DNA of 53,785 bases from Candidatus Tayloriibacteriota bacterium (GTDB lineage Bacteria > Patescibacteriota > Minisyncoccia > Phycocordibacterales > PALSA-1337), in assembly GCA_031384385.1 (NCBI GenBank), contig JANNAN010000019.1, positions 1-53,785 on the forward strand, given 5' to 3'. A program made the translations under genes and the position numbers. Shown in pieces: positions 830-39,919 of the stretch (the first letter of the stretch is position 1; every line of letters starts with the position of its first letter). The notes beneath the pieces are model-generated. The model ran no database searches. It was not told the origin of the DNA and was given only the letters and a program-made list of their open reading frames with translations.

Positions 830-830
830 A

Positions 831-2477: not shown

Positions 2478-2480
2478 AAT

Positions 2481-4805: not shown

Positions 4806-4811
4806 ACAATC

Positions 4812-5423: not shown

Positions 5424-5444
5424 TAAGTATGTTAAAATAAAAGA

Positions 5445-5870: not shown

Positions 5871-5871
5871 A

Positions 5872-6504: not shown

Positions 6505-6508
6505 AACT

Positions 6509-8341: not shown

Positions 8342-8347
8342 TAGATT

Positions 8348-8770: not shown

Positions 8771-8790
8771 AGTGTGTTAAAATAAAGTAA

Positions 8791-9801: not shown

Positions 9802-9803
9802 AT

Positions 9804-10892: not shown

Positions 10893-10897
10893 CCCCC

Positions 10898-13390: not shown

Positions 13391-13528
13391 AGTTCAGATA
13401 CTATACATTATGACAGATAAAAATTCAAGGTTTAGTATAAGCGTGAGAAGTTCGTAAGCGAAAAGTTGCTTTTTTCGGAACTTGTGAGAAAAAACAACCT
13501 TTTCGCATTAAAGAACTTTCAAAATTGG

Positions 13529-13567
13529 TTGTCCACAACTTATCAACATGGTTATAAGATTTCCACA
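13529..13567. promoter_or_regulatory. cluster of three same-orientation DnaA-box-like 9-mers upstream of dnaA (oriC part 1 / dnaA autoregulation)
   Basis: TTGTCCACA (13529-13537), TTATCAACA (13540-13548) and ATTTCCACA (13559-13567), compared with the consensus TTATCCACA. All lie within 75 nt of the dnaA ATG. Confidence 0.55.
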
Positions 13568-13603
13568 AGTTTGCTATTTTACAAACAAGTATATAATTGC
13601 CTC

Positions 13604-23009: not shown

Positions 23010-24707
23010 CTAATCTTCAATAGAAATCACTCTTTCAAGTTCGTCAAAGGATGTGATTCCTTGTAATATTTTTATAATACCATCTTGCTTCAATGTTAGG
23101 AGAGATTGAGGAGCTGCGACTTTTTCAATCTCATCTGCACTTGGATTATTTTCTATAACCGCATTAACTTCTGGTGTCATTTTTATTCCCTCATAAATAC
23201 CGATTCTTCCTTTGTATCCAGTATGATTGCATTTTTCACAGCCATTTGATTCGGCTATAAAAATATTTGTAGGTATTGGTGGAATATCATTTTTATCAAA
23301 AATTGTAGCTACAATTTTATCTATTTGAATTTTCACATTATTTTCCATAGCAACTGGTTTTTTGCAGAATTCACAAAGTTTTCTTACAAGTCTTTGTGCT
23401 AGAACAATATTTATTGCAGAACTCATAATTTTAGGATTTATTTTTAGATCAATGAGTCTTGGAAAAGCACCAGCAGCACTATTCGTGTGAAGGGTAGAGA
23501 AAACTAGGTGGCCTGTAAGAGCAGAGTTGATGGCGATTGCCGCTGTTTCTCCATCTCGAATCTCGCCGACCATAATAATATCTGGATCTTGTCTAAGGGC
23601 CGCGCGTAGACCATCTAGAAAAGAATATCCCTTATCATTTACTTGGGTCTGAACAATACCCGGAAGATGGTATTCTATAGGATCTTCGATTGTGATAATT
23701 TTTACTGTTGGATTGTGAGTTTTTTTTAAGAAAGCGTAAAGAGTTGTTGTTTTTCCAGATCCAGTTGGTCCTGTTGTTAATAACATACCATTTGGCTTTT
23801 CTATTTCTTTTAAAATGATATTTAGAAGTTTTGGTGGAATACCAAGTTCTTCAAGTGGAACTCCGATAGATTTTGGATTCAGAATACGCATAACAATAGA
23901 CTCATTGTATGCCCCAGGTAGAATAGAAGTACGAATTTCAATATTTGTATCTTTAACATGAACACTGAATCTTCCATCTTGCGAATCTTTTTTAATATTT
24001 AATTTTAATCCTGAAAGTAATTTTACACGAGAAAGTAGAAGATTGTATGTATCTTTGTCGAAATCTAAAACTTTCACAAGTACACCATCAAGGCGATATC
24101 TAAGTCTTATATATTCTTCTTCTGGTTCAATGTGCACATCGGATGCTCTTGTTGCTAGAGCTCCAGCAAGAATAGTTTCCAGAATTCTTGAAACTCGATA
24201 GCTCTTTTTCATAGAAAGAGTATTTTCTAGTATGGAAATAATAGTCGGTAGACCTTCAGCTTTTTCAATTATTTCTGAAATTTCATCACTATTTACTTCT
24301 AGAGAACCCGCCTTACTTTCATATGCGAACGAAAGATCTTTGAAACTACTCCACGCCCTTTCAAGTCCTGCTGTAGAAGCAATACAAAGTATTACTGTAT
24401 ATCCTTTTGTTTTTAAACCATCAATAACTTCTTTAGTTCCTTGATCTTCTGGTAAACGCACTGCAACTTTAAGCTTCTTATCTGTAAGGTGAAATGCTGC
24501 CATTTTATTTTCTCTAGATGTTTTCTCGTCTATTAATCTTAATGCATCAGAATTGATTAATGTTACAGATAGATCAACATATTCGATGCCATATTTGGCA
24601 GAAAGTAATTGAACTAATTCCTCCTCCTCTTTTTTTAGTAGATCTGAAACTTTTCTATTTTGCTTATCTTCGTCAAATTGAATCATTTGTCTTTTATTAT
24701 AGCCCAT
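23010..24707 (-). CDS. pilB: PilB/GspE-family type II/IV secretion (type IV pilus assembly) ATPase
   Basis: 565 aa with Walker A GPTGSGKTTTLYA, a tetracysteine motif CEFCKK...CEKCNHTGYKGRIGIYE, and an N-terminal T2SSE_N-like region. Confidence 0.85.
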   Translation of the reverse strand: MGYNKRQMIQFDEDKQNRKVSDLLKKEEEELVQLLSAKYGIEYVDLSVTLINSDALRLIDEKTSRENKMAAFHLTDKKLKVAVRLPEDQGTKEVIDGLKTKGYTVILCIASTAGLERAWSSFKDLSFAYESKAGSLEVNSDEISEIIEKAEGLPTIISILENTLSMKKSYRVSRILETILAGALATRASDVHIEPEEEYIRLRYRLDGVLVKVLDFDKDTYNLLLSRVKLLSGLKLNIKKDSQDGRFSVHVKDTNIEIRTSILPGAYNESIVMRILNPKSIGVPLEELGIPPKLLNIILKEIEKPNGMLLTTGPTGSGKTTTLYAFLKKTHNPTVKIITIEDPIEYHLPGIVQTQVNDKGYSFLDGLRAALRQDPDIIMVGEIRDGETAAIAINSALTGHLVFSTLHTNSAAGAFPRLIDLKINPKIMSSAINIVLAQRLVRKLCEFCKKPVAMENNVKIQIDKIVATIFDKNDIPPIPTNIFIAESNGCEKCNHTGYKGRIGIYEGIKMTPEVNAVIENNPSADEIEKVAAPQSLLTLKQDGIIKILQGITSFDELERVISIED

Positions 24708-28151: not shown

Positions 28152-28811
28152 ATGATTTATTTTTATTATGGAACTGATATAAAAAAGACTCATCTTAAAT
28201 CATATGAACTTATAAATTCTTTACTAAAAAAGAAGCCTGATGCATCATTTTTTAAAATAGATACAGAAAATTTTGATGTGATTACCTTGAAAGAATATGT
28301 CGGTAGTCAAGGATTATTTTCAGATAAATATATAGTTTTATTGGATAGACTTTGTGAAAAAAAAGATATAAAAGAAGAGTACATTGATTTATTAAAAGAA
28401 ATTTCTGGATCTGATAATATTTTCATAATTCTTGAGGGTAAAATAGACAAAGTTACAGCCACAAAAATTGAGAAAAAATCAGAAAAAACGATCAAATTTG
28501 ATCTTGAAGAATCTTTTAATAAAAAAAGTGATTCGAATGCATTTGAAATTGCTAATGCCTTAGGTAGAAGAAATAAAAAAGAGATATGGATATTATATCG
28601 TAAGTATATTGATTCTGGATCTGCACCAGAGGAATTGCACGGCATTTTATTTTGGAAAGCCAAAAATATGCTTCTTATAAAAGATTTCTCTTCTTGGAAA
28701 GAAGAAGAATTATTAAATTTAATAGATAAATTAATAACCATTTATCATGAAGCAAGAAGAGGGAATGGAGAGTTGGAAACAAGTCTTGAGGCCCTAATAC
28801 TTATTATTTAA
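28152..28811 (+). CDS. holA: DNA polymerase III delta subunit-like (short)
   Basis: 219 aa. The N-terminal pattern IYFYYGTD...LFSDKYIVLLD...NIFIILEGKIDK resembles HolA domain I. Shorter than typical HolA. Confidence 0.45.
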   Translation: MIYFYYGTDIKKTHLKSYELINSLLKKKPDASFFKIDTENFDVITLKEYVGSQGLFSDKYIVLLDRLCEKKDIKEEYIDLLKEISGSDNIFIILEGKIDKVTATKIEKKSEKTIKFDLEESFNKKSDSNAFEIANALGRRNKKEIWILYRKYIDSGSAPEELHGILFWKAKNMLLIKDFSSWKEEELLNLIDKLITIYHEARRGNGELETSLEALILII

Positions 28812-30365
28812 TGGTAATGAGAAACTAAAAGTACTTCCTTTCTCTAGTCCCTCTGAGTTTGCCCATATTTTACCTTTATGGCGCGAGATAATTTCTTTTG
28901 CAATAAATAATCCAATTCCCATACCCTCAGTATCTGCTTTTCTAGCTTCATGCGTTCTATAAAATTTTGAAAATATAAGATTAAATTCTTCTTTGCTTAT
29001 ACCCATGCCTGTATCATGTATAGAGAATATCATATCTTCACTATTCTTTTTAAACCCTATGGATATAATCCCATTATCCTTTGTGTAATGGATAGCATTC
29101 TCTATTAAGGTTTGAATTACAAATTTTATTCTTGCGAGATCACATTTAGTTTCTATTCCAGTCTCTATAGATTCAGTTATGTTTAATTGCTTGGCTTTGA
29201 TTTGATCAGATACAGATTCCAAAACATTTTCTACTGCCTTACTTATATCATTTTTTTCAAATTTATATTTGTATGAACTGTGCTCTGCTTCAGATGTTGT
29301 AACTAATAAGTCAGTTAATTCTATAAGTTTTTCATTTGCATTTTTTATATAACCCACCTGTGTAGACATTTCTGGAGTTAGTTGATAATTCTTTAGATTT
29401 TCTATTGCCCACTTTATTCCAGTTAAAGGTGTGCGGAATTTATGAGTAACTGTAGTAAGAAATTCATATTTTAATAAATCATTTTCTCTTAATGTTTTCC
29501 AAACGACAGTACTGATTGTTACAAAAAAAACAGCAGATATTACAGCCGTAACCCATGTTGGATAATTTGGTAAAAAACTTGTTATTATTCCATTAGAAAA
29601 ATTTAATAGGATGATTATTCCACCAACTATGATAATGCCAATTGCATAAAAGAATGCTTGTTTCGCGACGATCTTCACATCGAATAATTCATATTTGATA
29701 GCTCCATATAAGAACGGGGGTATGAAGATAAGCGGAAACAGCATACCAATTAGTGGATCTATTGGAATATTATAAATAAGAAAATTTGGTACGAAGCCCG
29801 GTATAAAAGCAACTATCAGCGTTATGATTAAGTATTTGTATTGATTCTTCTTAATTTCAGAGCTAGCTTCTTTGCGAGTTTTAAATAATAAGTATATAGA
29901 ATAGGGCACACAAACTCCATACAAAAAGGGAACTCTTATCCAATTTAGTATCCCCGGATTATAATAATTTGGAAAATACATTTTAGGGACTGATGACAGT
30001 AAGAAAATATCTGGAAATATTGAAAAGAAAATTACAATGATGATTGCTGATAAATGTATTAATATTATTGTCCATTTATTTTCTTTTTCCTTACCTATCA
30101 TATAAATGACTGAATGGACCAAGAAACTACCAATAAAAAATAAAGATAGATTGAACATTAGAAAAAATTTGGATAAATCTGGATTAGTAACATTTACTCC
30201 AATTACATGAGATATTGTGAATATTACTACGAACAATGCTGAAAATGCGAATGTAATATTTGTAATTTTATTTCTACCATTCAAAAAAGAAAATAAAGAA
30301 ACTCCTAATAATAATAAAGTCGACATCACTGATGTAATATTATGAGCGATTAGGTGGATATTCAT
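28794..30365 (-). CDS. sensor histidine kinase with a ~8-TM N-terminal domain (no response regulator in the window)
   Basis: H-box HKFRTPLTGI, N/G boxes HDTGMGIS and GMGIGLFIAKEI. Its start overlaps the stop of the upstream cohesin-like gene (CAATGAAT, ATGA overlap at 30362-30365). Confidence 0.85.
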   Translation of the reverse strand: MNIHLIAHNITSVMSTLLLLGVSLFSFLNGRNKITNITFAFSALFVVIFTISHVIGVNVTNPDLSKFFLMFNLSLFFIGSFLVHSVIYMIGKEKENKWTIILIHLSAIIIVIFFSIFPDIFLLSSVPKMYFPNYYNPGILNWIRVPFLYGVCVPYSIYLLFKTRKEASSEIKKNQYKYLIITLIVAFIPGFVPNFLIYNIPIDPLIGMLFPLIFIPPFLYGAIKYELFDVKIVAKQAFFYAIGIIIVGGIIILLNFSNGIITSFLPNYPTWVTAVISAVFFVTISTVVWKTLRENDLLKYEFLTTVTHKFRTPLTGIKWAIENLKNYQLTPEMSTQVGYIKNANEKLIELTDLLVTTSEAEHSSYKYKFEKNDISKAVENVLESVSDQIKAKQLNITESIETGIETKCDLARIKFVIQTLIENAIHYTKDNGIISIGFKKNSEDMIFSIHDTGMGISKEEFNLIFSKFYRTHEARKADTEGMGIGLFIAKEIISRHKGKIWANSEGLEKGSTFSFSLPLNNKY

Positions 30366-32077
30366 TGTGATATATCTTTTATTTCTTTGGTAATTGTGTT
30401 CTCTGATTCATCAAGATTTTTTTCAAAATGTTCTAGAAAAGCAATTTCTTCAGTAGTTAGTTTGCGTTTCGACTTCATAGATTTTAGTTTTGCTATATGT
30501 TCATCAATATCTTTTCTTAAAATGCTAAAAGATTTCCTTAGAATATATTCAGCTTCTCTAGCTTCGCGACGAAGAAGACGTAAAACTCTGAATAGGCGAT
30601 ACCAAAGAAATATACCCAGACCAATAATGCCACCTAGGGCAAGAATTGCGAATATTATTGCAGACATATATTTAAGTGCAAGATCTGTGATTTTGGTAAG
30701 GAATGGTGAATTAACGATAAGATTTAGGGGTTGAGTTTCATTGCTACGCGCACCTCTTGTGTCGATTACTCTTGCAGTGAATGTATACACTCCTGGCGGT
30801 AGAAGTTTTGTTGTGACTATAACAAAATCTCCAAATTCATTACTTTTTGTATATTCTTCAGATAGAATTTTGTTGTTTTGTTTAATAGAAATAGTAATAT
30901 CAGAATTTTTATAAGTTGTACCAAGAATCTTTATGATATCTCCAGATTCAATCTCTTCTTTATAATATTTTATTGTTGGAGCTTCAATATTTTCAATGGT
31001 GAAATCGGCAGAAGCACTTACAGTATTTCCCGCCTCATCAATAGCAGTAGCAATGACAGTGTGTGTACCTGGAAATTGTGAGGTGAGTGTATATGGGCTT
31101 GAAACTTCTGATGGCTCTACGCGTATAGGACTACTTCCTTCAACTTTAATATCGTAGTGACTGATACCAGAATCATCATCTGTTGTGCTAAAAATAAGTA
31201 CTGGCCTTGGTTCAAAACCCTTTGCTCCATGAGGAAAAGTAATAGAGAAGGGGTTCGGTGGCTTATTATCAATATTTACTCTATAACGAGCAATGTCACT
31301 CCAACCTTCGGCATTGCGTATCTGTAAAGAGAAATAATATGTTCCATTTGGAAGTGTATCAACTTTCTTCTTTGAAATGGGTGATGTATATAAAACAGTT
31401 GGAGTGATATTGGCAGATTTACCAATAAAAGTTCTCACCTCGATTGCATTTGGTGGAAGAGTCCATGAAAACTCAGGTGTATTGTTTGAATACCATTTGG
31501 CTTGATCTGAATGCGTTATTGATGAAATTGTCGGAGTATTTTTATTAGAATTATTTGCAGGTACAATAACTTTTTCGTTTATACCAGAATTTACAACAAA
31601 ACTAGCTGTACCCATACCATCAAGAATATCCGCACCAGATCCATCATTGGCGAGTATAGATCCAGAAGAAAAGCTTATATTTGCAAGACCAGCAGACTTT
31701 GCTCTAAAAACAACTGTAATGACATTCCCTTGAATACCAGTATAGCCGGGATTAAGAATTACTCCTTCAAAGTTCACCTTACCTTGAGTATTTGAAAAAG
31801 AAGGCTCTTGCACCCAAAGATTCACAATTGAATTGGATTTTGAAAGACTTATTACTTCAATTTTATCTTGTGGAAAAGATACAATTCCAGAAGCAGCATT
31901 TGCTGATTTATTAGGGCTAGAGACATATACATTTACCGAGAAAATATCTCCAATATTCCTTGAGACAGTTGATGGAGAAAATCCTAGAGTTGCAGCACTA
32001 GAGATATAAGGAAGACAGAAAAAAATAATAAATATAAAAACAATTTTAATTAATTTTGTGAATTCTTTTTTCTGCAT
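30362..32077 (-). CDS. cohesin-like domain surface protein with Ig-like repeats, a C-terminal TM anchor and a cytoplasmic coiled-coil tail
   Basis: Signal peptide IVFIFIIFFCLPYISSA. Cohesin-like module: IGDIFSVNVYVSS...ASGIVSFPQDKIEVISL...GKVNFEGVILNPGYTGIQGNVITVVFRAKSAGLANISF. TM segment AIIFAILALGGIIGLGIFLWY. I placed the start at MQKKEF (32077) rather than the ORF-track 32131. Confidence 0.6.
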   Translation of the reverse strand: MQKKEFTKLIKIVFIFIIFFCLPYISSAATLGFSPSTVSRNIGDIFSVNVYVSSPNKSANAASGIVSFPQDKIEVISLSKSNSIVNLWVQEPSFSNTQGKVNFEGVILNPGYTGIQGNVITVVFRAKSAGLANISFSSGSILANDGSGADILDGMGTASFVVNSGINEKVIVPANNSNKNTPTISSITHSDQAKWYSNNTPEFSWTLPPNAIEVRTFIGKSANITPTVLYTSPISKKKVDTLPNGTYYFSLQIRNAEGWSDIARYRVNIDNKPPNPFSITFPHGAKGFEPRPVLIFSTTDDDSGISHYDIKVEGSSPIRVEPSEVSSPYTLTSQFPGTHTVIATAIDEAGNTVSASADFTIENIEAPTIKYYKEEIESGDIIKILGTTYKNSDITISIKQNNKILSEEYTKSNEFGDFVIVTTKLLPPGVYTFTARVIDTRGARSNETQPLNLIVNSPFLTKITDLALKYMSAIIFAILALGGIIGLGIFLWYRLFRVLRLLRREAREAEYILRKSFSILRKDIDEHIAKLKSMKSKRKLTTEEIAFLEHFEKNLDESENTITKEIKDISQ

Positions 32078-32928
32078 AATTTTTTTATTAAGAATAACAA
32101 GATGAAGAGTACACTTATAATAATAAACCAATATTGTATATTCTCATAATGGCTTGGTGGATACTTTGGTTCAATTTCAATAATTCGTTCATTACCAAGC
32201 TTGTCGATTGCCTTTAGAAATATTTTCTTGCTAAGAGTTTGGTCTTTTAACAAATATGGACTTTCTACAACAGTAAACCAATCTAATATTCCTTCACGAA
32301 CTTTGTAGTTGGCTATGCCAGATATTTTATCTTGTGTGGCGAAAACAAGAAAATATTTTCCATCAAATATATTTGGATCTTTCTCAATAGTAGGGAAGAA
32401 GTTCTCTGGTAAGTCTTTATCAGTTAATATTTCTTCCGAGGCATTACTAATTCCTGATTTTATATAGACAGCTGTATTATTTAGTTTAAGTTCTACGGGG
32501 CTACCTAATCCATCATTTTTTAAAGCTTTCAAATCTTCTAATACAATAGAAGTTAAGCCTGTACCTTTTGCCTCAAAAACTACAGAAAAAATACTCTTAT
32601 TTGCCCCATTAAATCCTCCAGGGGTAATGCCAGAAAACAAAACAGAACCTGATTTTTCAATATGTGGTTTTTCAATCCAAAAGTTTATAACAGAATTACC
32701 ATCACGGATCTCCTTAATGGATAGCTTATCTGTTGGAAATACTAATCTACCACTGATAGCATTCAATGATTCTTCGGAATGAACTATGATATCTAGTGAA
32801 AATTGCTCATCAGAATTGACCTCTGATTTATGTGTATCAAGACGAATCTCAGCAGCAAAAACTGATTCAGCAATAAAAAATAAAGATATTAAAAGAAAAA
32901 CAGATGTTATTTTTGTATAAATATTCAT
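32050..32928 (-). CDS. cohesin-like domain surface protein with a C-terminal TM anchor
   Basis: Signal peptide ...IAESVFA. Cohesin-like module: EQFSLDIIVHSEESLNAISGRLVFPTDKLSIKEI...SGSVLFSGITPGGFNGANKSIFSVVFEAKGTGLTSIVL. C-terminal TM segment YWFIIISVLFILLFLI. Confidence 0.6.
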   Translation of the reverse strand: MNIYTKITSVFLLISLFFIAESVFAAEIRLDTHKSEVNSDEQFSLDIIVHSEESLNAISGRLVFPTDKLSIKEIRDGNSVINFWIEKPHIEKSGSVLFSGITPGGFNGANKSIFSVVFEAKGTGLTSIVLEDLKALKNDGLGSPVELKLNNTAVYIKSGISNASEEILTDKDLPENFFPTIEKDPNIFDGKYFLVFATQDKISGIANYKVREGILDWFTVVESPYLLKDQTLSKKIFLKAIDKLGNERIIEIEPKYPPSHYENIQYWFIIISVLFILLFLIKKLCRKKNSQN

Positions 32929-32932
32929 GATA

Positions 32933-33946
32933 TTATCCTGTCCAATTAAATGCCATTATTGAAAAATCTATAAGGTTTACTTTGCCATCTCCATTTAAAT
33001 CAATCAATGTTGGAGGATTGGCTCTTTTATACCAATACGCAATAATAGAAAAATCTATAAGGTTTACTTTGCCATCCTTGTTTAAGTCTGATTTTGAGAT
33101 AATCTTTTCTAGTGATTGTAAGAGTACATTCTTTGTACCCACAATAAAAGCTGCAACCTTACTAAAAGAGCTGATCTCACCATCTAGATATACTTTTGAT
33201 TTGGTGCTATGTTGTCCCATTTCAAGTACGGAGGTATCAAAGTTCAGTAAGTATACTCCATTTGCATCAGATTTTTTTTTTACAAAAAATTCTTCCTCGG
33301 AATTAATATTAACTGTTATTTCGGATAAAGGTGCGCTTTGTCCAAAAATAGCAATATTATCTCCACGACGCACTTCACTTTTATCAACAGCAATAGATGG
33401 TGCTATAAAGATATTACCGATTTTTGTGGTTACTCCAGCAGTAACACTTATTGGAAAAGTAAAGAGTGATGATCTGACACCTTTATCATCTTCTGAATAG
33501 ACACTAAAAATATAATTTCCACCAGAAAGACTTGATATTGTCATTTGAAAATTTGCACCTGCATCAGCAATCGTTGTTGCTGCAACCTGAGCATCTTTTA
33601 GAAGGGTAACTGTACTTCTTGGGTATGCTTTACCTGTAAAAACAACATTGGTGTTTGGAATAGTAGGAGTATTATTTCCTCCGCCTCCACCACCAGAATT
33701 AGAGCTACACATCGAAGTATTTAATGTACATGATGCTGTGCAAGAAAGAGTTCCTCCGGTAAAACCTTGTAAAGTACAAGATCCACCACCAAGATTTGAG
33801 CCGTCACATTGCTCACCGACAGAAATTATACCGTCTCCACATCCAGGTACTATTGCCGATATTTCAACAGTAATAGCTAAAACACTAAATGGAAAGAAAA
33901 ACAGAGAGAGTAAAAAAATGATTGATAGTGGATAAAATGATCTCAT
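32933..33946 (-). CDS. secreted dockerin-containing protein with an N-terminal Cys-rich repeat and an Ig-like middle region
   Basis: The C-terminus holds two canonical dockerin calcium-binding repeats, DLNKDGKVNLIDFSII and DLNGDGKVNLIDFSIM. The N-terminus CGDGIISVGEQCDGSNLGGGSC...SCTASC resembles the CGDG...EQCD cysteine-rich repeat. Confidence 0.75.
   Translation of the reverse strand: MRSFYPLSIIFLLSLFFFPFSVLAITVEISAIVPGCGDGIISVGEQCDGSNLGGGSCTLQGFTGGTLSCTASCTLNTSMCSSNSGGGGGGNNTPTIPNTNVVFTGKAYPRSTVTLLKDAQVAATTIADAGANFQMTISSLSGGNYIFSVYSEDDKGVRSSLFTFPISVTAGVTTKIGNIFIAPSIAVDKSEVRRGDNIAIFGQSAPLSEITVNINSEEEFFVKKKSDANGVYLLNFDTSVLEMGQHSTKSKVYLDGEISSFSKVAAFIVGTKNVLLQSLEKIISKSDLNKDGKVNLIDFSIIAYWYKRANPPTLIDLNGDGKVNLIDFSIMAFNWTG
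32961..33076 (-). repeat. 29-nt perfect direct repeat encoding the two dockerin segments
   Basis: gaaaaatctataaggtttactttgccatc occurs at 32961-32989 and again at 33048-33076 (87-nt period, 29 codons). Confidence 0.9.
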
Positions 33947-34930
33947 TCATTTTTGTTGTTGTGCTTGAGCAATAATCCAACGATTATATTTTTTGAGTGC
34001 TATTTTTCCTAAAAATCCAATGATAGAAGCTATGATAAGAACAATTATGAGTAGTTGCCAAGGGATAACAAAGAAGTTGTAGCTAGCCCTTGCTATCTGA
34101 TTTGTTGCTCCCCATGTAATATTTAGTTTTGCTGTATACCAACCGAAATGAAAATTATTCCATTGTTGTCCAACCATCTCAAAAAATCCAGGAATAGCAA
34201 TCTCTTCTTTGGAATTAGTTGGTTTTTGTATTTCTTGCCCCCATAGTACTTCAAATTTTCTGGCACTTCCTGGCAATACACTACCCTCATTTTTATTTGC
34301 TAAAAGTTTGGCTGAGGTATACTGTACTGTATTTTTAATTTTGATTTCACCCAAAGGCACAACACGATCTCCACCGGTATTATTTAGACGATAGGTAAAT
34401 GCTATTGGCAGGGTAGTAAAAAATCTCTGTTTTTCTTTGGTGTTAAACTCTAGTAGACCACCTCCTTCTTCTACATCACCAGAAACACGCAAAAGTATCA
34501 AAACACCTATTTTTCCACCGACAGATACTTGTCCTCCACCTTGTATGCCGGGCTCTTGGCTACCAAAAAATATTGCAGCAAAATGACCCCCTGGCTCAGC
34601 ATTTTTGGGAATAGTAATAGAATATGGAATGATAGTACGATTACCTGATTCTAGTATAACTTTACTTTTTGAATTTATCCATGTAGCGAGACCATCTTTT
34701 GCGCCAATAAAATGAGGAGCACCAGTATCTCCACTTGGTTCAAAATTTTCAAATGAAGTATAGAAGGTTCTTGCCCCCTCCTGCTCGTTAAAAAGCTCTA
34801 TTTCACCCTCAAGTTTTGCTCCTGGATCACCAGTAATCTCAACTCTTGCTGGGGATACTGTTAAAGCAAATACCGGACTTGCTATGCTTGCAATTACTAT
34901 AACTAGAATTGTATAAAATAAATTTCGCAT
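33947..34930 (-). CDS. DUF916/DUF3324-like (CscA-like) surface protein with a C-terminal TM anchor
   Basis: Signal peptide, then LTVSPARVEITGDPGAKLEGEIELFN and ...IIPYSITIPKNAEPGGHFAAIFF (DUF916-like pattern). A second beta domain contains TYRLNNTGGDRVVPLGEIKIKN. C-terminal TM segment LLIIVLIIASIIGFLG. Its stop abuts the next start (TGAATG). Confidence 0.55.
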   Translation of the reverse strand: MRNLFYTILVIVIASIASPVFALTVSPARVEITGDPGAKLEGEIELFNEQEGARTFYTSFENFEPSGDTGAPHFIGAKDGLATWINSKSKVILESGNRTIIPYSITIPKNAEPGGHFAAIFFGSQEPGIQGGGQVSVGGKIGVLILLRVSGDVEEGGGLLEFNTKEKQRFFTTLPIAFTYRLNNTGGDRVVPLGEIKIKNTVQYTSAKLLANKNEGSVLPGSARKFEVLWGQEIQKPTNSKEEIAIPGFFEMVGQQWNNFHFGWYTAKLNITWGATNQIARASYNFFVIPWQLLIIVLIIASIIGFLGKIALKKYNRWIIAQAQQQK

Positions 34931-34971
34931 TGGATATATGTTGGGAATAAACGCTTATATTTTAGATACTT

Positions 34972-36024
34972 CTAAAAGTTAGCAGTTGTTACATATGTAA
35001 GGGTAGAAGTGTATGCTCCCGCTTCTGTGTTTGAGGCGATGTTCGCAATATATCTTGCTGAGTAAGTGGTATTTGCAGAACTACCAGAAGCCGAAGCTAC
35101 TTGACTGGGGAAGGATGCTGTATTAAGTGCAAATCCTGATGCTGCATAAGGAGCAGTTACTGTACCAGAACCTCCTGTAGCAGTCATACGCAAACCAAAT
35201 TGTTCCGTACCAATAGCAGATGCTGTGTTTGATGCACCAATCGCAGTTATAGTGAATGCACCACTAGTTAGTGTAGTTCCATTCAGTGTCATACTGTAAC
35301 CACTTCCTGCATTTGTACCAACAATAACATTGTGTGCTTCTACTTCTGATGCTGAACAAGCAGCAGTACCTTGTGCATAACAAGCTGCTGATGATGAAAG
35401 ACTTCCAAAACCGATAGTGTTATCTGAAATACTGAATGTTAGAGATTGATCAACAGTAGCCGTAACTGCTACTTGGTCATCAGTTAAAATATTCACTGTT
35501 ATGTTTCCTGTGTCTGTAAATGTACCAGAAATAGCTATTACCTTTGAACCATTAGAAGTGGTGTTGGTGATCTGTCTAACCCCAGTTGATTGGTTGGTAG
35601 CATTTGTACCAATTTTAATTCTCATTACACTACCAGCTGTAACTACGGTTGTACCGTTTGTAAGAGTTATTACTGTTGCTGAAGTACGAACCGCTCCCCA
35701 TGTAGCACCAGATGGAGAGGCTGCCAAAGTAACATTTGATGCATCATCAAGCACATCCATATCAGTAAAATCCATGGCAGCTGCTATAGAAAAATCAGAT
35801 GGCAAAGTAATAATAATAGTTTGGCCTGAGGCAACACCGGTAGGCGTTGTAAATTGGATATCATGGTTAGCTAGAGTGCTGACCTTTTGTGAAGATAGGG
35901 TATCAGAGGCAGCAGTGATCGCGGCAGCATAGGCCGTCTGTACCCCACTTGAGAGTGTAAGTAATCCTATAACAAGATAAAGACTTGTTAGAAAATGTAC
36001 TCTTGAAATAAATGTTCTGTTCAT
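34972..36024 (-). CDS. secreted beta-rich surface/fibre subunit candidate (paralog A)
   Basis: Signal peptide ...GVQTAYA; Thr/Ser/Ala/Gly-rich. Its C-terminal ~155-aa module (QSLTFSISDNTIGFGSL...GTEQFGLRM...AGAYTSTLTYVTTANF) is shared with the next gene. The module ending resembles SCPU/WxL-type subunits. Confidence 0.6.
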   Translation of the reverse strand: MNRTFISRVHFLTSLYLVIGLLTLSSGVQTAYAAAITAASDTLSSQKVSTLANHDIQFTTPTGVASGQTIIITLPSDFSIAAAMDFTDMDVLDDASNVTLAASPSGATWGAVRTSATVITLTNGTTVVTAGSVMRIKIGTNATNQSTGVRQITNTTSNGSKVIAISGTFTDTGNITVNILTDDQVAVTATVDQSLTFSISDNTIGFGSLSSSAACYAQGTAACSASEVEAHNVIVGTNAGSGYSMTLNGTTLTSGAFTITAIGASNTASAIGTEQFGLRMTATGGSGTVTAPYAASGFALNTASFPSQVASASGSSANTTYSARYIANIASNTEAGAYTSTLTYVTTANF

Positions 36025-36133
36025 AAAAATTATTTGCTTGTAAATATTAGTTTAATAAAAATTTTGTAGTAACTTAAATAGTATAGCATATTTTTTATTG
36101 TCAATGCTAGCAAAAATGTGGGTAAGTTTTATA

Positions 36134-37138
36134 TTAAAAAGTTGCTGTTACAGTATATGTTAAAACTGAAGAATAACTTCCATTTTCAGTATTAGCAGAA
36201 ATATTACTTATATAACGAACTCCAAATTGACTGGTTACTCCATCTCCAGCACCTGATGTAACCTGATCTGGAAATGTAGCAGTATCCATTGCCCAATTTG
36301 AACCATTGTATGGAGCGCTCACTGAACCTGTCCCAGAATTTACAATCGCACGCAAACCAAATTGTTCAGTTCCTGAGCTTCCTGCTACGGCTGTACCACC
36401 TATTGCTGTAACAGTATTTCCGCCAGATGTAAGTGTATTCCCATTGAGCGTCATTGTGTAACCGCTAGATGCATTGGTTGATATTGATATAGTATGAGCA
36501 TCACTTGTATCAGATGCAGAACCATTTGTATCTCCTGTGGCATATCGAGCTCCTGAAGCCACAAGTGTGCCAAAACCAATAGTATTATCTGAAATACTAA
36601 ATGTTAATGATTGACTTCCTCCAACAGCAGTGGCACATATTTTAGTAGTGTAGGCACTTCCATCTCCGACATGAGAATTTGTAGTTGCATTTAAAGAGCC
36701 AAGAGTTGTATCAAATCCAGAACAATTAGTTGCCTGATAACCAACTGATACAGAACCTCCTGATGGTACTGATATACAAGCATTGTTAGCATAATTTACT
36801 TGACTGTTTTGTTCCACATGAGCGTTACTTGTTCCAGATAATTTAAGTACCGTAGCAAATGTACCAGAGCAAGAATTACCGAGACTACTTACTCCGCTAC
36901 AACAAATAACATTATTGCTATAATTTCCATTTGCTTGACTAGGAAGTTCCGCATGAGCATTTGATGATCCGGACATGCGCAAAATCACTGTATTAGTACA
37001 AGCAGCAGCAGTTGTAATAGAGCAAGATAAAGTACCAGCATGAGAAATATGTTCAAATGATAATGCAAAGAAAAAGATGGTCAAAAATAAAACTGTAATC
37101 CTTTGTTTCTTATTAAAAAGTTGTAGTAGTTGTACCAT
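36134..37138 (-). CDS. secreted beta-rich surface/fibre subunit candidate (paralog B) with a triple Cys-containing N-terminal repeat
   Basis: Three copies of an SNAH-type motif: MSGSSNAHAELPSQANGNYSNNVICC, LSGTSNAHVEQNSQVNYANNACIS and LNATTNSHVGDGSAYTTKICAT. The C-terminal module QSLTFSISDNTIGFGTL...GTEQFGLRA...NGSYSSVLTYTVTATF is paralogous to 34972-36024. Confidence 0.6.
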   Translation of the reverse strand: MVQLLQLFNKKQRITVLFLTIFFFALSFEHISHAGTLSCSITTAAACTNTVILRMSGSSNAHAELPSQANGNYSNNVICCSGVSSLGNSCSGTFATVLKLSGTSNAHVEQNSQVNYANNACISVPSGGSVSVGYQATNCSGFDTTLGSLNATTNSHVGDGSAYTTKICATAVGGSQSLTFSISDNTIGFGTLVASGARYATGDTNGSASDTSDAHTISISTNASSGYTMTLNGNTLTSGGNTVTAIGGTAVAGSSGTEQFGLRAIVNSGTGSVSAPYNGSNWAMDTATFPDQVTSGAGDGVTSQFGVRYISNISANTENGSYSSVLTYTVTATF

Positions 37139-38030
37139 TGGTGTTTATGTTTTCACTTAGAGAGGGTAGAGCTTCAATAACATTAGCTGTCATATCAGGC
37201 AGAGAATTTGAAGAAAAACTAGAAGGTGTAGTCGTTTCAGTGATAGTTTCAGAAATCAAAACTCCATCTATTGGAGCAGTAACAATTTGTCCATCAATTA
37301 AGTCTGATTTTATAGAAGTGATAGCTGTATCTTCTTGTATAATTTCTTCTGTAACTAGTTCAATATTTTGTGGTATTGGTTTAATATCACTAAATCCAGA
37401 CATTGCCATTTCTCCTGTACTATCTGAACCAAAAACCATATGTGCAAAATCAAAAACCGTACTCTCTGGATTGTCATATGTATATTCTTTGTAAATTCCA
37501 TCATCAATTTTTATTTTGAAAGTTCCTGCCTCTCCTATTTTTTGATCAAAATTGATTGTGAAAAGATACCATTTATCAGCATCATAATCTGAAAGTAAAG
37601 AAATTTGTTGGTCTGCTTCTTCTAATATAATACCTTTTGATTCAGTAAATTTAATACTAAATAACATCTGACTACTAGCATCTGATGTTAGAGCATTAAA
37701 ATAAAACAATCCTTTTTTATTATGACGCATTCTTAATTGAAAAATTCCGCTATTTAATGGTGTGATATCGTGAACAGCTGTGATAAAACCATCATGAATC
37801 ATTTCTACATATTTTGTATCTCCATCTGGATATGTCGTAGAAACATTGGCAATCCCATTAGAATTTCCTGAATGATTTGTTACCACCCAACCACCTTGCC
37901 CATTAAGATTGCCAAGACTGTATGATTCAAAAGTATCTTCAAATGCCCAATTACTATTTGCAGATACAAAATTTACAGTAAAAAACATCAAAACTAGAGG
38001 AAATAAAAATTTTGTAAAAAGTTTCTTCAT
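37113..38030 (-). CDS. secreted LamG/concanavalin-like lectin-fold candidate
   Basis: Signal peptide ...FTVNFVSA. The beta-sandwich-like sequence WAFEDTFESYSLGNLNGQGGW...KWYLFTINFDQ...FKIKIDDG resembles LamG-type domains. Thr-rich C-terminus. Overlaps the next gene by 26 nt. Confidence 0.45.
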   Translation of the reverse strand: MKKLFTKFLFPLVLMFFTVNFVSANSNWAFEDTFESYSLGNLNGQGGWVVTNHSGNSNGIANVSTTYPDGDTKYVEMIHDGFITAVHDITPLNSGIFQLRMRHNKKGLFYFNALTSDASSQMLFSIKFTESKGIILEEADQQISLLSDYDADKWYLFTINFDQKIGEAGTFKIKIDDGIYKEYTYDNPESTVFDFAHMVFGSDSTGEMAMSGFSDIKPIPQNIELVTEEIIQEDTAITSIKSDLIDGQIVTAPIDGVLISETITETTTPSSFSSNSLPDMTANVIEALPSLSENINTNGTTTTTF

Positions 38031-38064
38031 AACTAATATAAACTATGCAATATTTTATACTTTT

Positions 38065-39591
38065 TTACCAAGAGTAGATGAAAATAGCACCTCTACCACC
38101 CGCGCCACCAGCACCACCTAATCCTGGGTTCATTCCCACTCCACCTCCACCTCCTCCACCACCATGTATGCCACCAGCACCACCAGCACCACCAGCGGTT
38201 GAGGCAGTAACAGTCGTGCCTCCTCCTCCACCACCCGCGCCACCTTTTGTAGAATTACCCGCTGCACCAGCAGTTCCAGCGGTTGGAGAAGCTCCATCAG
38301 TACCTACCGCTCCTCCTCCAGCCGCAATGTAAGAAGTAACTCTACCTCCTGCTGAACCAGCAACTATAGCTGGGGTAACATTGTGATGCCCACCTGAACC
38401 CCCACCTCCACCGCCAAAAATAGAACCACCTCCCACAACACTTGCTGGAGCTGAAGTACTTCCACCACCACCTGCACCACCATATTCAGCATTGTGTGTA
38501 GTAACAACAGTGATTGGGCCCTGAGAACCAGTTCCTCCTGTAACACCAGTAACATTACTTGTTCCAGGAAGTCCTCCAGCTCCTACTGCTGTACTACCTG
38601 TACCACCGGCACCTCCATTACCCCCACCTCCACCTCCACCACTTGCAACAGCCGAAATAGCTCCCCCTCGACCACCACCACCTCCAAATGCTGAAAGTAT
38701 AACTGTTGTACCAAATGTAGAATTGCCACCGATTCCTCCATCACCACCTGCTGCACCAGCGGCTCCAGCTGCACCAGCAGTTCCACCAACACCCACATTC
38801 AAACTTTCAGTTGATCCTAAATCTGAGGCTCTGTAGAGTCTACTTACGAATACACCACCTCCACCACCTGCACCACCTTTTGCTACGACAGCTGTAGCAA
38901 GTGATGCACCTGCTCCACCTCCACCACCACCACCCCACATAACAACCTCTACGAAGTCTGGAATAAAAGTAGTCGGTTTTGTCCATGTTCCAGCACCTGT
39001 AGATGTGAACGCCTGTACATCGGATAAAGGAGAGCTCGACCATGTAGTACCGTTAGAAGTAAGCACATTACCTGAAGTTCCTGGAGCAACAAATGTAGGA
39101 TTACTCGTTCCATTTCCGAGAATAACATTGTTCGCTGTAAGTGTGGCAAGACCAGTACCTCCTTGTGCAACCGTTACAGCAGAGTCTGAAGTAAGAACAG
39201 TGGCATTGGCATTTGGAAATGTGAAAGTTTTAGCAGTTGAAGCTGGTCCAGCAGCAGTGAAGAATGCCATACCTGTACCTCCGTTTGCACTTGGTAAAAT
39301 ACCAGTTATACCATTTGTTAAATCGATCTGTGCCCATGCGGGATTATTTGATGAACCTGTATTGGAAAGATATCTTGTGGCGGAAGTATTTTTTGCCAAA
39401 GCTGTAAGTGTGTCTGCTGCTGATCCATAAAAAATATCACCCTGTGCTGCTCCACCACCAATAGCACTAAAATCATGTCCGGGATTTGGAGTTACAGCGA
39501 ATGCGATACTGATTATGGAAAATGAAATTAGAAGAAGCCAAAAAATACTTAGAGCTTTATTTGTATTTGAAACGAGAGATAACTTTTTCAT
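38065..39591 (-). CDS. secreted tail-fibre-like protein with a glycine-rich C-terminal domain
   Basis: Signal peptide ...IISIAFA. Repeats ITGILPSANGGTG and VTVAQGGTGLATLTANNVILGNG are the GGTG motifs seen in phage tail-fibre-like proteins. FTSTGAGTWTKPTTFIPDFVEVVMWGGGGGGGAG starts a ~280-aa Gly/Ala-rich domain. Confidence 0.65.
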   Translation of the reverse strand: MKKLSLVSNTNKALSIFWLLLISFSIISIAFAVTPNPGHDFSAIGGGAAQGDIFYGSAADTLTALAKNTSATRYLSNTGSSNNPAWAQIDLTNGITGILPSANGGTGMAFFTAAGPASTAKTFTFPNANATVLTSDSAVTVAQGGTGLATLTANNVILGNGTSNPTFVAPGTSGNVLTSNGTTWSSSPLSDVQAFTSTGAGTWTKPTTFIPDFVEVVMWGGGGGGGAGASLATAVVAKGGAGGGGGVFVSRLYRASDLGSTESLNVGVGGTAGAAGAAGAAGGDGGIGGNSTFGTTVILSAFGGGGGRGGAISAVASGGGGGGGNGGAGGTGSTAVGAGGLPGTSNVTGVTGGTGSQGPITVVTTHNAEYGGAGGGGSTSAPASVVGGGSIFGGGGGGSGGHHNVTPAIVAGSAGGRVTSYIAAGGGAVGTDGASPTAGTAGAAGNSTKGGAGGGGGGTTVTASTAGGAGGAGGIHGGGGGGGGVGMNPGLGGAGGAGGRGAIFIYSW

Positions 39592-39699
39592 AAGATTTAT
39601 AATTAAATTATAACATCTTCTATATAAAATGCGAAACCTTAATTTTATTTATCTAAATAAAATTAGATGAGAATTATGTCTGAATAGTTACAAAGCAAT

Positions 39700-39797
39700 T
39701 GTGCGCCCAGTTGGAATCGGTCACGGATATTCGCCTACTGGCGAATTCCTTGACCACGCCTCCTTCGCCTTCGCTCAGTCCGGCTTTCGATTCCAAC
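39700..39797 (-). other. tRNA-Lys 3'-end fragment plus a GC-rich hairpin element (possible att-site scar or tRNA-derived element)
   Basis: The 20 nt at 39700-39719 (tgtgcgcccagttggaatcg) are identical to 39845-39864, the 3' end of the intact tRNA-Lys. An inverted copy cgattccaac lies at 39788-39797. An imperfect 14-bp hairpin lies at 39720-39754. Confidence 0.5.
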
Positions 39798-39808
39798 AAT
39801 GCAATAAT

Positions 39809-39834
39809 AAAAAACCAGAGACCAAAGTCTCCAG
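39809..39834 (-). terminator. intrinsic terminator after tRNA-Lys
   Basis: Minus strand reads CTGGAGAC-TTTG-GTCTCTGG (8 bp including 2 G-U pairs) followed by TTTTTT. Confidence 0.55.
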
Positions 39835-39846
39835 TTTTTAATTATG

Positions 39847-39919
39847 TGCGCCCAGTTGGAATCGAACCAACGACCCACTCCTTAAAAGGGAGTTGCTCTA
39901 CCGACTGAGCTATGGGCGC
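39847..39919 (-). tRNA. tRNA-Lys (anticodon TTT)
   Basis: Manual cloverleaf: GCGCCCA TA GCTC AGTCGGTA GAGC A ACTCC CTTTTAA GGAGT GGGTC GTTGG TTCGATT CCAAC TGGGCGC A. 73 nt; CCA not encoded. Confidence 0.9.

Follow-up and report, generated by a model that had tools for sequence, protein, structure and literature searches.

Our analysis covered a window of 53,785 nucleotides from Candidatus Tayloriibacteriota bacterium (assembly GCA_031384385.1, contig JANNAN010000019.1, positions 1-53,785 of the forward strand), which GTDB places in Bacteria; Patescibacteriota; Minisyncoccia; Phycocordibacterales; PALSA-1337. Nine minus-strand open reading frames, here named G1 to G9, are present at 28794-39591, and all further coordinates refer to features on the same strand. 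The junctions from G1 to G9, taken from the coordinates, are +34, -26, +109, +41, 0, +4, -28 and -4 nt. They bear out the tight spacing described in the original prediction, including a 26-nt overlap at 37113-37138, a 109-nt gap, a TGAATG junction at 33944-33949 and an ATGA overlap of G8 and G9 at 30362-30365, while the 28-nt overlap between G7 and G8 holds on the condition that the cohesin gene G8 starts at the ATG at 32077. On inspection, the N-termini of the eight non-kinase products likewise agree with the predicted signal peptides, each opening with a basic residue that precedes a hydrophobic stretch. C-terminal transmembrane (TM) anchors had been predicted for three products and were found for G5 and G7, but G8 does not end in an anchor, since its TM segment at residues 475-493 is followed by a cytoplasmic tail of 78 aa. 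Upstream of G1 lies a possible promoter (39607-39635; TTCGCA, 17-nt spacer, TG, TATAAT) that scored 10/12 in a consensus scan; it is a candidate only, because the region holds fewer consensus matches than its shuffles.

G3 (334 aa, 36134-37138) and G4 (350 aa, 34972-36024) are, by sequence, members of the Pam pilin family. They match the NCBIfam model NF058581 (CPR_Pam_pilin_C, "Pam pilus system pilin subunit") with 66.7 and 78.1 bits, respectively, at a curated cutoff of 55 bits. The Pam pilus was described in 2026 in a cryo-EM preprint on Candidatus Mycosynbacter amalyticus (Saccharimonadia), where PamA and PamB, the founders of the pilin family, were solved as donor-strand-exchange filaments in which the donated strand is the inter-domain linker (bioRxiv 10.64898/2026.03.03.709456). 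The combination of modules at the locus had been taken for an unrecognised system; this no longer applies, as both paralogs are Pam-family pilins and the cluster is thus in part already characterised. G3 and G4 have exactly the linker and the C-terminal domain in common (56% identity in the last 159 residues, E 2e-51), and their N-terminal domains differ. The N-terminal domain of G3 is Cys-rich and contains repeats, and its position in related loci is occupied by proteins of 500-2392 aa matching the window pilins, making G3 a candidate for a minor or tip (adhesin) subunit. G4 is the most conserved subunit, with 1232 homologs, and is a candidate for the major pilin. Its AF2 model (pLDDT 90) shows an N-terminal beta-sandwich (residues 37-180), a linker and a C-terminal domain. 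The linker (residues 181-194, TDDQVAVTATVDQS; 35443-35484) might be the donor strand: it is a lower-confidence coil in the AF2 monomer (mean pLDDT 64 at residues 181-190) and its conservation alternates (V185 0.98, V187 0.90, A189 0.86, V191 1.0). Foldseek searches with the pilin model, against a PDB copy without PamA and PamB, returned only generic two-Ig-domain adhesins with TM scores of 0.2-0.28. That G3 and G4 polymerise we infer from the homology of the C-terminal domain.

G5 (327 aa, 33947-34930) is modelled as a pair of Ig-like domains followed by a TM helix at the C-terminus (residues 291-326 in the AF2 model, pLDDT 81). Its best PDB match by Foldseek was the Enterococcus WxLIP (9i25_C/9i1y, E 5e-11, TMt 0.52), followed by RbmA (E 1.5e-9) and the chaperones CsuC and CfaA (E ~5e-8, TMt 0.42-0.45). 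WxLIPs are composed of DUF916, DUF3324 and a TM helix and belong to the WxL/Csc clusters of Lactobacillales (PMC10599100; PDB 9i25, 9i1y); in Firmicutes they are the proposed holders of non-polymerising WxL proteins. G5 itself gave no significant match to PF06030 or PF11797 and none to the Pam-named NCBIfam models. PF06030 WxLIP_PGBD (the former DUF916) was weakly matched by 9 of 48 G5 homologs and is the most frequent weak Pfam family among them, which together with the fold match upholds the earlier DUF916-like assignment. G5 has 1123 homologs, with identities of 57-83% among the best 119 relatives listed. We regard G5 as a candidate membrane-anchored pilin chaperone analogous to PamC and PamD, which are TM-anchored PapD/FimC-like chaperones (bioRxiv 10.64898/2026.03.03.709456). 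Since its matches also include RbmA, whose fold has been assigned to the anchor PamR, chaperone and anchor roles are inseparable here.

These genes might alternatively encode a non-filamentous complex of the WxL/Csc type, in which the WxLIP-like G5 holds G3 and G4 by strand insertion without polymerisation, G3 and G4 are the 'short' and 'long' partners and the cohesin–dockerin set described below adds tethered surface proteins. As in WxL/Csc clusters, the envelope is monoderm and a gene for a TM-anchored tandem Ig-like protein lies beside those for a pair of secreted, beta-rich partners, of which one is short and conserved and the other has a large, very variable and sometimes giant N-terminal part (500-2392 aa). 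The best solved match of G5, moreover, includes an entry bound to a long WxL protein, PF06030 points the same way, and the WxLIP architecture and a predicted strand insertion between anchor and partner have been described (PMC10599100). However, G3 and G4 matched no WxL model, and the 50 best fold matches to the pilin model included no WxL chain. Both instead exceed the cutoff for the Pam pilin C-terminal domain, a family founded on proven filament subunits, and the alternating conservation of the inter-domain linker is typical of a donated strand. Unlike WxL/Csc clusters, the locus also has no LPXTG component and has added cohesin and dockerin proteins. On balance we consider such a complex unlikely.

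G6 (337 aa, 32933-33946) is a secreted protein without a TM segment that carries a C-terminal type I dockerin (residues 286-331, nt 32954-33091). The dockerin call is firm, with 39.4 bits to Dockerin_1 at a Pfam cutoff of 22.9. From the N-terminus, the protein comprises a signal peptide, a short beta-strand, a Cys-rich segment, one or more Ig-like (Big_6/Big_13) regions (Big_6 E 1.2e-5) and the dockerin, and two Ca-loop motifs, DLNKDGKVNLID and DLNGDGKVNLID, are present. The mature N-terminus, ITVEISAIV (33848-33874), is a candidate donor-strand mimic based on its likeness to the pilin linker: the N-terminal consensus of the G6 family, A-I-T-V-E-I-T-A-T-V-P-G-C-G-D, matches the pilin linker consensus V-x-V-[TS]-A-T-V. 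With a pilin-linker PSSM (threshold 10 bits, null rate 1.8e-4 per 7-mer), 36 of 75 G6 homologs reached at least 10 bits, and 32 of the 36 sites were located, as expected, at ORF residues 25-46; the copy in the window, VEISAIV, stayed under the threshold.

G7 (292 aa, 32050-32928) has a cohesin-like region (residues ~25-160), an Ig-like region and a C-terminal TM anchor (YWFIIISVLFILLFLI, then KKLCRKKNSQN). G8 (571 aa, 30362-32077) combines a cohesin-like domain with Ig-like domains (Big_13, 30.8 bits at a cutoff of 27, and Y_Y_Y) and the TM segment; its post-TM tail is helical, and tails of at least 50 aa occur in 42 of 59 G8 homologs, with a median of 78. The N-terminal cohesin-like domains of G7 and G8 are 30% identical over 160 aa (E 1e-17). 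The cohesin call is weak but consistent. Pfam Cohesin (PF00963) was matched by 11 of 49 G7 homologs (best E 3.2e-5), several G7 homologs carry the NCBI name 'cohesin domain-containing protein', the top PDB profile matches of G7 were scaffoldin cohesins of R. flavefaciens (E 0.14), and G8 homologs in two related loci (L002 and L004) have a precomputed weak PF00963 match, but in G7 and G8 of the window themselves the signal was sub-threshold only. We found no published account of a cohesin–dockerin trio in this system, or of a WxLIP link, in the literature.

Across Paceibacteria and further CPR lineages, the order pilin(s), G5, G6, G7, G8 recurs in 83 distinct related loci, 79 of which came from a one-genome-per-species scan. 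Where enough flank was available (65 loci), G6 follows G5 in 56 cases, and G6 together with a cohesin protein does so in 47. This conservation bears on a cellulosome-like interpretation, according to which G7 and G8 are membrane-anchored cohesin scaffoldins that present dockerin proteins in order to bind or degrade polysaccharides, the other genes being unrelated neighbours. The Dockerin_1 match, the cohesin signals obtained for homologs of G7 and G8 and a carbohydrate-binding module family matched by G2 relatives speak for it, and known cohesin–dockerin systems, cellulosomal and non-cellulosomal, similarly feature a secreted type I dockerin with two Ca-binding loops and cohesin-like domains on cell-anchored proteins whose genes adjoin the dockerin gene. 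Yet no glycoside hydrolase or other enzyme was found in the cluster, so that the clostridial scaffoldin logic invoked earlier does not apply in its enzymatic sense; the only dockerin protein lacks a catalytic domain, each anchor protein has one cohesin, and anchoring is by TM helix rather than by SLH domains or sortase. The 47 loci moreover keep the trio in synteny with the genes for G5 and the pilins, inside a pilus operon, which argues for one system, and we judge a cellulosome-like function very improbable.

G1 (508 aa, 38065-39591) is a Gly-rich protein, secreted or signal-anchored, whose earlier description as tail-fibre-like is supported by matches to Gly_rich_2 (PF21722, 29 bits, cutoff 24.3) and to PHROG 863 'tail fiber assembly' (E 1.9e-9). 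G1 is a frequent companion of the pilus genes, with a homolog beside the pilins in ~20 related loci, and a protein resembling tail fibres is central in Pam neighbourhoods (bioRxiv 10.64898/2026.03.03.709456). G2 (305 aa, 37113-38030) is secreted and was initially called LamG-like; a lectin/CBM-like domain of the concanavalin type is indeed indicated by PF22585 Sialidase-like_CBM, which was matched by 14 of 35 relatives (best E 6e-6) and by G2 of the window at E 0.028, but relatives are few, with only 41 representatives among 1.84 billion proteins. As G2 occurs in only 4 of the 83 related loci, it is a narrow accessory. Both G1 and G2 are probably accessory surface proteins for host-cell binding. 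G9 (523 aa, 28794-30365) is a polytopic sensor histidine kinase (HisKA 31.8 bits, HATPase_c 78.7 bits). Only 3 of the 83 loci contain weak matches to it (24-33% identity), and by this comparison it adjoins the cluster in this genome alone and is not a conserved member of the system, contrary to its former inclusion in the assembly.

GC content is raised across 33-40 kb (up to 0.51 at 38-39 kb, compared with ~0.30 in the background), and a tRNA-Lys(ttt) gene is located at 39846-39919. Both features had been pointed out before, but the hint of foreign origin they carried did not hold up. The nine genes have GC3 values (0.15-0.23) no different from those of polA, dnaA, dnaN, tyrS and others (0.15-0.21), and the GC excess sits in codon positions 1 and 2, so it reflects amino-acid composition. 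That an island gained by horizontal transfer, or the remains of a phage, at tRNA-Lys brought in the tail-fibre-like and adhesin genes is hardly credible and already largely refuted: the adjoining tRNA, an exact 19-nt repeat of its 3' end 127 nt downstream of it, the PHROG 863 match of G1 and the elevated GC would fit, but GC3 is that of housekeeping genes, neither integrase or phage genes in the cluster nor another copy of the repeat at the operon's far end were found, tRNA-Lys adjacency does not recur in the related loci, and gene order is kept across Paceibacteria, ABY1, Gracilibacteria-class and other CPR in varied chromosomal contexts.

Taken together, the locus is probably one for a Pam-type pilus in a CPR bacterium of the class Paceibacteria; pili of this type are thin surface filaments that assemble by donor-strand exchange without an usher. 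The locus resembles that of the Pam pilus in the C-terminal domain family NF058581, the pilin architecture (a sandwich at the N-terminus, a linker, then the C-terminal domain), several paralogous pilins per operon, Sec signal peptides throughout, the absence of an usher, a protein of two Ig domains and a C-terminal TM helix adjoining the pilins, a tail-fibre-like neighbour and a CPR host with an episymbiotic lifestyle. It differs in its distribution in Paceibacteria and relatives, whereas the emphasis of the preprint is on Saccharimonadia and Microgenomatia, and in having a single G5-type protein instead of PamC and PamD as in Mycosynbacter. Neither a PamT-like single-domain tip pilin nor a separate RbmA-like PamR was found within the window, and ATP synthase genes, which are typical Pam neighbours (bioRxiv 10.64898/2026.03.03.709456), are absent from it. 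The conserved dockerin protein and the two TM-anchored cohesin proteins, in turn, have no mention in the Pam paper. With chaperone-usher pili, classical as well as archaic (Pap/Fim, Csu, CFA/I), the system would share the principle of donor-strand complementation and exchange, the two-Ig-domain chaperone fold (CsuC, CfaA) and an operon with a major and a variable pilin. In contrast to these pili there is neither outer membrane nor usher, the putative chaperone is membrane-anchored, the pilins have two domains and the donor would be an internal linker instead of an N-terminal extension; Pfam PapD, Fimbrial and SCPU signals were not found in the cluster.

In such a Pam-type pilus all structural proteins would be exported by Sec, and the membrane-anchored G5 would hold newly exported pilins by strand complementation, as suggested by the fold that G5 has in common with the Enterococcus WxLIP and PapD-type chaperones. 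The linker of the next pilin would then displace the chaperone strand, and the filament would extend outward from the membrane. We further infer that the cohesin–dockerin trio anchors the pilus base: the secreted G6 would enter the base of the filament via its N-terminal strand resembling the pilin linker and dock onto the membrane-anchored G7 and G8, a tether that would fill the role assigned to PamR in Mycosynbacter. The attachment organelle envisaged in the original prediction is consistent with the function proposed for Pam pili, and the locus probably represents a widespread version of the Pam pilus with a cohesin–dockerin set that may fasten the filament to the cell.

The operon of nine consecutive minus-strand genes at 28794-39591 (G1 to G9, numbered in the order of transcription) is probably a Pam-type pilus locus. 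Its two paralogous pilins, G3 (36134-37138, minus strand) and G4 (34972-36024, minus strand), scored 66.7 and 78.1 bits, respectively, with the NCBIfam model NF058581, "Pam pilus system pilin subunit", for which the curated cutoff is 55. The original prediction had taken this combination of modules for an undescribed system, a view that the two pilin matches contradict. The definition of the Pam pilus dates from 2026 and is based on a single cultivated species of Saccharimonadia. According to the accessible text of the preprint, filaments of Ca. Mycosynbacter amalyticus, solved by cryo-EM, are made of PamA and PamB (bioRxiv 10.64898/2026.03.03.709456). The same text describes an operon with the TM-anchored, PapD/FimC-like chaperones PamC and PamD, the tip pilin PamT, and the RbmA-like PamR, for which a terminating role, through an N-terminal strand, and an anchoring role, through a TM helix, are proposed; a tail fibre-like gene and ATP synthase genes are named as typical neighbours (bioRxiv 10.64898/2026.03.03.709456).

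All nine ORFs of the predicted operon are present, with junctions computed, in order, as +34, -26, +109, +41, 0, +4, -28 and -4 nt, and the TGAATG and ATGA junctions could be read directly in the sequence. Signal peptides had been expected on every product except the kinase, and the N-termini of G1 to G8 are indeed signal-peptide-like by inspection. Of three predicted terminal membrane anchors, those of G5 and G7 were recovered as C-terminal TM helices; the TM segment of G8 lies at residues 475-493 and is followed by a tail of 78 aa, so that it is not terminal. Scans for promoters and terminators gave counts not above those in shuffled sequence and are uninformative on a single transcript.

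Neither pilin has a Pfam match. G3 and G4 share 56% identity across their C-terminal 159 residues, starting at a conserved QSLTFSIS motif just downstream of the linker, and their N-terminal domains are unlike. The AF2 model of G4 (pLDDT 90) has the architecture expected of a two-domain pilin, which is also that of the Pam pilins, with an N-terminal beta-sandwich (strands within residues 37-180), a linker (181-194) and a C-terminal domain (195-348). The model shows the linker as a lower-confidence coil, although its conservation alternates (V-x-V-x-A-x-V), which is what a donated strand would look like and makes it a candidate donor strand. The matches that Foldseek gave for this model were all generic two-Ig-domain adhesins (ClfA, FnBPA, SdrE; TM 0.2-0.28) and are uninformative on a likeness to PamA/PamB or to WxL domains, and a profile built from the C-terminal pilin domain alone had zero matches to PDB chains at E<=10; PamA and PamB are evidently absent from the PDB copy searched. 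Sequence searches of PDB chains with G4, G5, G7 and G8 gave nothing significant. The PamT equivalog model was matched by G3 and G4 below threshold (20.6 and 33 bits, cutoff 240), and the pilin C-terminal domain was absent from all other ORFs of the window, which therefore holds no single-domain tip pilin PamT.

Two observations concern the position and the domains of G3. Its N-terminal domain (residues ~50-175) carries, by eye, three Cys-bearing repeats around S-x-S/T-N-A/S-H-A/V-E/G, namely SGSSNAHAE, SGTSNAHVE and ATTNSHVG, and may be an adhesin or metal-binding module. Elsewhere, giant proteins of 1035-2392 aa that match the window pilins fill the G3 position upstream of the G4 homolog (L044, L046, L049, L054, L073 and other related loci); by analogy to "long WxL" proteins they are candidate tip adhesins.

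Directly downstream of the pilins lies G5 (33947-34930, minus strand), the only gene of its type at the locus. Among its 1123 homologs, the best ~120 listed are 57-83% identical; those that are named come from MAGs of Ca. Taylorbacteria and Ca. Kaiserbacteria (78-80% identity for these two groups) and of other Patescibacteria, and the best 119 relatives listed carry no precomputed Pfam domains. The AF2 model of G5 (pLDDT 81) consists of two beta-sandwich (Ig-like) domains and a C-terminal TM helix. Its first-ranking PDB matches in Foldseek were structures of the Enterococcus faecium WxLIP (9i25_C, a complex of WxLIP with a long WxL protein, and 9i1y; E 5e-11 to 3e-10, TMt 0.48-0.52), followed by RbmA (E 1.5e-9) and, third, by the chaperones CsuC and CfaA of chaperone-usher systems (E ~5e-8, TMt 0.42-0.45). 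PF06030 (WxLIP_PGBD, the former DUF916) was the commonest weak Pfam match among G5 homologs (9/48, best E 5.6e-4) and was not matched by the window protein itself. Since WxLIP is the top structural match and PF06030 recurs weakly in the family, the earlier DUF916-like assignment is right at the level of the fold. As modelled, G5 appears to share the fold class that is called chaperone in the Pam paper, where PamC and PamD enter the comparison by their description in the accessible text only. An apparent similarity between the G5 and G6 families was a clustering artefact caused by one chimeric ORF in a related locus (L042), and direct BLAST indicated no homology.

We evaluated the conservation of the locus in a scan of one genome per species, which returned only close relatives of G4 and yielded 102 matching stretches, of which 80 loci were kept. 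These loci derive from Paceibacterota/Parcubacteria, Kaiser-, Staskawicz-, Nomura-, Harrison-, Doudna-, Magasanik-, Gracili- and Peribacteria, and CPR2, and many of their source genomes are automatically labelled TPA MAGs. When the nine window proteins were compared by BLASTP with the ORFs of all loci fetched, nearly every sufficiently flanked locus had the order G1, G2, G3 (whose place may be taken by a protein of 500-2392 aa that has the pilin C-terminal domain), G4, G5, G6, G7 and G8, with the first three positions variably occupied. The expected synteny across CPR relatives was thus found from the pilins to G8, and independent look-ups with precomputed Pfam domains (Gly_rich_2, Dockerin_1, weak Cohesin) agree on the order. 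Among the 65 loci with at least 4.5 kb 3' of G5, G6 was present in 56, G7 in 46, G8 in 44, and G6 together with a cohesin protein in 47. Three Doudnabacteria loci (L060, L061, L064) are devoid of the dockerin and cohesin genes G6-G8 and instead show the order pilin, G5, a second divergent pilin (~370 aa, ending in ...VTYVTTATY) and a second G5-like TM protein, after which very large proteins (1146-1712 aa) follow. This layout is closer to the Mycosynbacter operon than the window locus is. In another relative (L002), T2SSE and T2SSF genes are located immediately upstream of the G1 homolog.

Part of the conserved order is the set G6-G7-G8, which the original prediction had described as a dockerin with two cohesins. 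The dockerin part was confirmed above cutoff: G6 (32933-33946, minus strand) matches the type I dockerin PF00404 with 39.4 bits (cutoff 22.9) and has two Ca-loop motifs, no TM segment, and Ig-like Big_6 and Big_13 matches below threshold. The cohesin part appears only weakly, through homologs and a family profile. Window proteins G7 (32050-32928, minus strand) and G8 (30362-32077, minus strand) have no match to Pfam Cohesin (PF00963) at E<=1. PF00963 was matched by 11/49 G7 homologs (best E 3.2e-5) and weakly, as a precomputed domain, by G8 homologs; several homologs carry the name of a cohesin protein at NCBI; scaffoldin cohesins were the top, weak PDB matches of the G7 family profile (E 0.14-0.8). 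G7 and G8 have paralogous N-terminal domains, and a single cohesin-like domain is present in each of these anchor proteins.

The mature N-terminus of the G6 family has the consensus A-I-T-V-E-I-T-A-T-V-P-G-C-G-D, in agreement with the pilin linker consensus V-x-V-[TS]-A-T-V. Sites scoring 10 bits or more with a pilin-linker PSSM were found in 36/75 G6 homologs (null 1.8e-4 per 7-mer), at ORF residues 25-46 in 32 of these 36; the window copy (VEISAIV) is weaker with respect to the motif. The tail of G8 behind the TM segment (residues 494-571, window 30365-30598) is charged, apparently helical and cytoplasmic, has a weak match to TIGR04561 (membra_charge, E 0.039), and is conserved, measuring at least 50 aa in 42/59 homologs (median 78 aa). 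Such a cytoplasmic tail is unexpected for a mere surface anchor.

For the outer genes of the operon the picture is mixed. G1 (38065-39591, minus strand) was correctly recognised as tail-fibre-like, with matches to Gly_rich_2 and to a PHROG tail-fibre-assembly family. Long ORFs in other frames overlap it on both strands within 38078-39430 (e.g. 38078-38332 and 39005-39430, plus strand); their products are Pro- or Val-rich and of low complexity, and they are most likely artefacts of a GGN/GCN-rich coding strand. The lectin/CBM-like G2 (37113-38030, minus strand) has only 41 representative relatives, and 14 of the 35 aligned match a Sialidase-like CBM domain. G9 (28794-30365, minus strand) is an ordinary HisKA/HATPase_c sensor kinase. 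It had been counted as a member of the system; a kinase match was seen in 3 related loci only, at 24-33% identity, and we exclude G9 because the kinase is not syntenic in relatives.

How the window locus relates to systems known so far can be judged from what is shared and what is lacking. With the Pam pilus it has in common the pilin family, the two-domain pilin architecture and the tail-fibre-like neighbour G1; however, PamT and a separate RbmA-like PamR are absent (G5 itself matches RbmA), PamC and PamD are faced by the single chaperone-like gene G5, no Pam-named NCBIfam model matched G5 or 48 of its relatives, and a scan of 30 other ORFs of the window revealed no ATP synthase. The likeness to WxL clusters lies in the fold of the anchor protein and in the pattern of short and long partners. 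For WxLIP, the protein of these clusters with DUF916 (PF06030), DUF3324 (PF11797) and a TM helix, insertion of a strand into the WxL partner is predicted (PMC10599100). However, the partners in the window are not WxL proteins: WxL had no Pfam match at E<=1 in G3, G4 or 51 members of the pilin alignment, these 51 relatives gave no WxL, SCPU, Fimbrial or TasA signal in Pfam, and no WxL chain was among the top 50 fold matches of the G4 model. A chaperone-usher pilus is approached only by the fold-level likeness of G5, with no usher or PapD Pfam match in the nine proteins. A cellulosome, suggested by the dockerin, lacks its counterparts here, as the nine proteins contain neither enzyme domains nor a multi-cohesin scaffoldin. 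The module calls of the original prediction were largely right, while the undescribed nature of the system, the membership of the kinase and the hints of a foreign origin were not borne out.

Composition and a neighbouring tRNA gene had been hints of a foreign origin. The tRNA-Lys is indeed located upstream of the operon, and GC climbs to 0.51 inside G1. However, GC3 of the nine genes (0.15-0.23) equals the value for the window's housekeeping genes (0.15-0.21), and the GC excess is confined to codon positions 1 and 2, following the Gly/Ala/Thr/Ser content. The tRNA-Lys adjacency is not kept in relatives, of which two close ones (L013, L022) instead each have a tRNA-Thr at a distance of a few kb on the upstream side of the pilin genes, and Pfam and NCBIfam revealed no integrase among the operon proteins. 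A genomic island or prophage was rejected because of the native GC3, the absent integrase and the unconserved tRNA adjacency. The last 19 nt of the tRNA-Lys(ttt), CGATTCCAACTGGGCGCAC, are exactly repeated 127 nt downstream of the tRNA (copies at 39701-39719 and 39846-39864, minus strand), and between the copies there are a hairpin resembling a terminator (39810-39839) and a stretch of higher GC; no third copy was found in the window or at the far end of the operon. This repeat may be an att-type scar or a partial duplication of the tRNA.

The window is a part of the chromosomal core, with dnaA, dnaN, polA, holA, ruvAB, tyrS and mur genes. Since yidC (12189-12908), dnaA (13466-14950) and dnaN (15168-16274) are present, the replication-origin region falls inside it, and the pilus locus is ~15-25 kb from dnaA. 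Further genes for surface or secretion machinery were seen. A cluster at 5-12181 (plus strand) contains a VirB4/TraG-type P-loop ATPase (6509-8341), a weak T4SS_pilin match (9804-10892) and otherwise ORFs without Pfam matches; the cluster is similar to the monoderm-type type IV secretion system that, judging by the title of PMC12102498, is reported from Patescibacteria. Type IV pilus genes, for a PilB-type T2SSE ATPase (23010-24707, minus strand, E 6e-116) and a PilM-like protein (48195-49133, plus strand), are present as well, so the organism would have at least two pilus systems.

Taken from sequence and models, the locus would work like a usher-free, chaperone-assisted donor-strand pilus. 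Homology and fold support a scheme in which the structural proteins would be exported by Sec, the pilins would polymerise via linker-strand exchange, and the membrane-anchored two-Ig-domain protein would cap the pilin groove until exchange. The set G6-G7-G8 may anchor the filament, with the two functions of PamR split such that G6 would provide the strand and the dockerin, whereas the cohesin and the TM helix would come from G7/G8; we propose this cohesin-dockerin anchoring tentatively. Equally doubtful, when taken as a whole, is the wider reading that in most Paceibacteria-type Pam loci the linker-mimic strand of G6 caps the filament base and its dockerin binds the G7/G8 cohesins, replacing PamR, that G5 and the Pam chaperones are homologous to WxLIP, and that Pam pili and WxL complexes are two branches of one monoderm-specific strand-complementation system. 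The accessible text of the Pam preprint makes no mention of cohesin, dockerin, WxL or Paceibacteria, and we found no paper in the literature that links cohesin-dockerin proteins to CPR pili. What is new is the conserved cohesin-dockerin trio, the wide spread outside Saccharimonadia/Microgenomatia, and the structural connection with WxLIP.

A large part of bacterial diversity may consist of CPR bacteria, which live attached to the cells of a host, and to our knowledge almost nothing is known about the structures by which they attach. In Paceibacteria and several further CPR lineages, a strongly conserved operon is built around the Pam pilin family. The dockerin protein and the two membrane-anchored cohesin proteins are parts not described for Pam pili, and they suggest a testable tether of a usher-free pilus to a single membrane. 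Lactic acid bacteria and enterococci have WxL surface clusters, to which the WxLIP fold match ties the CPR pili; this bears on the evolution of strand-complementation surface assembly in monoderm bacteria.
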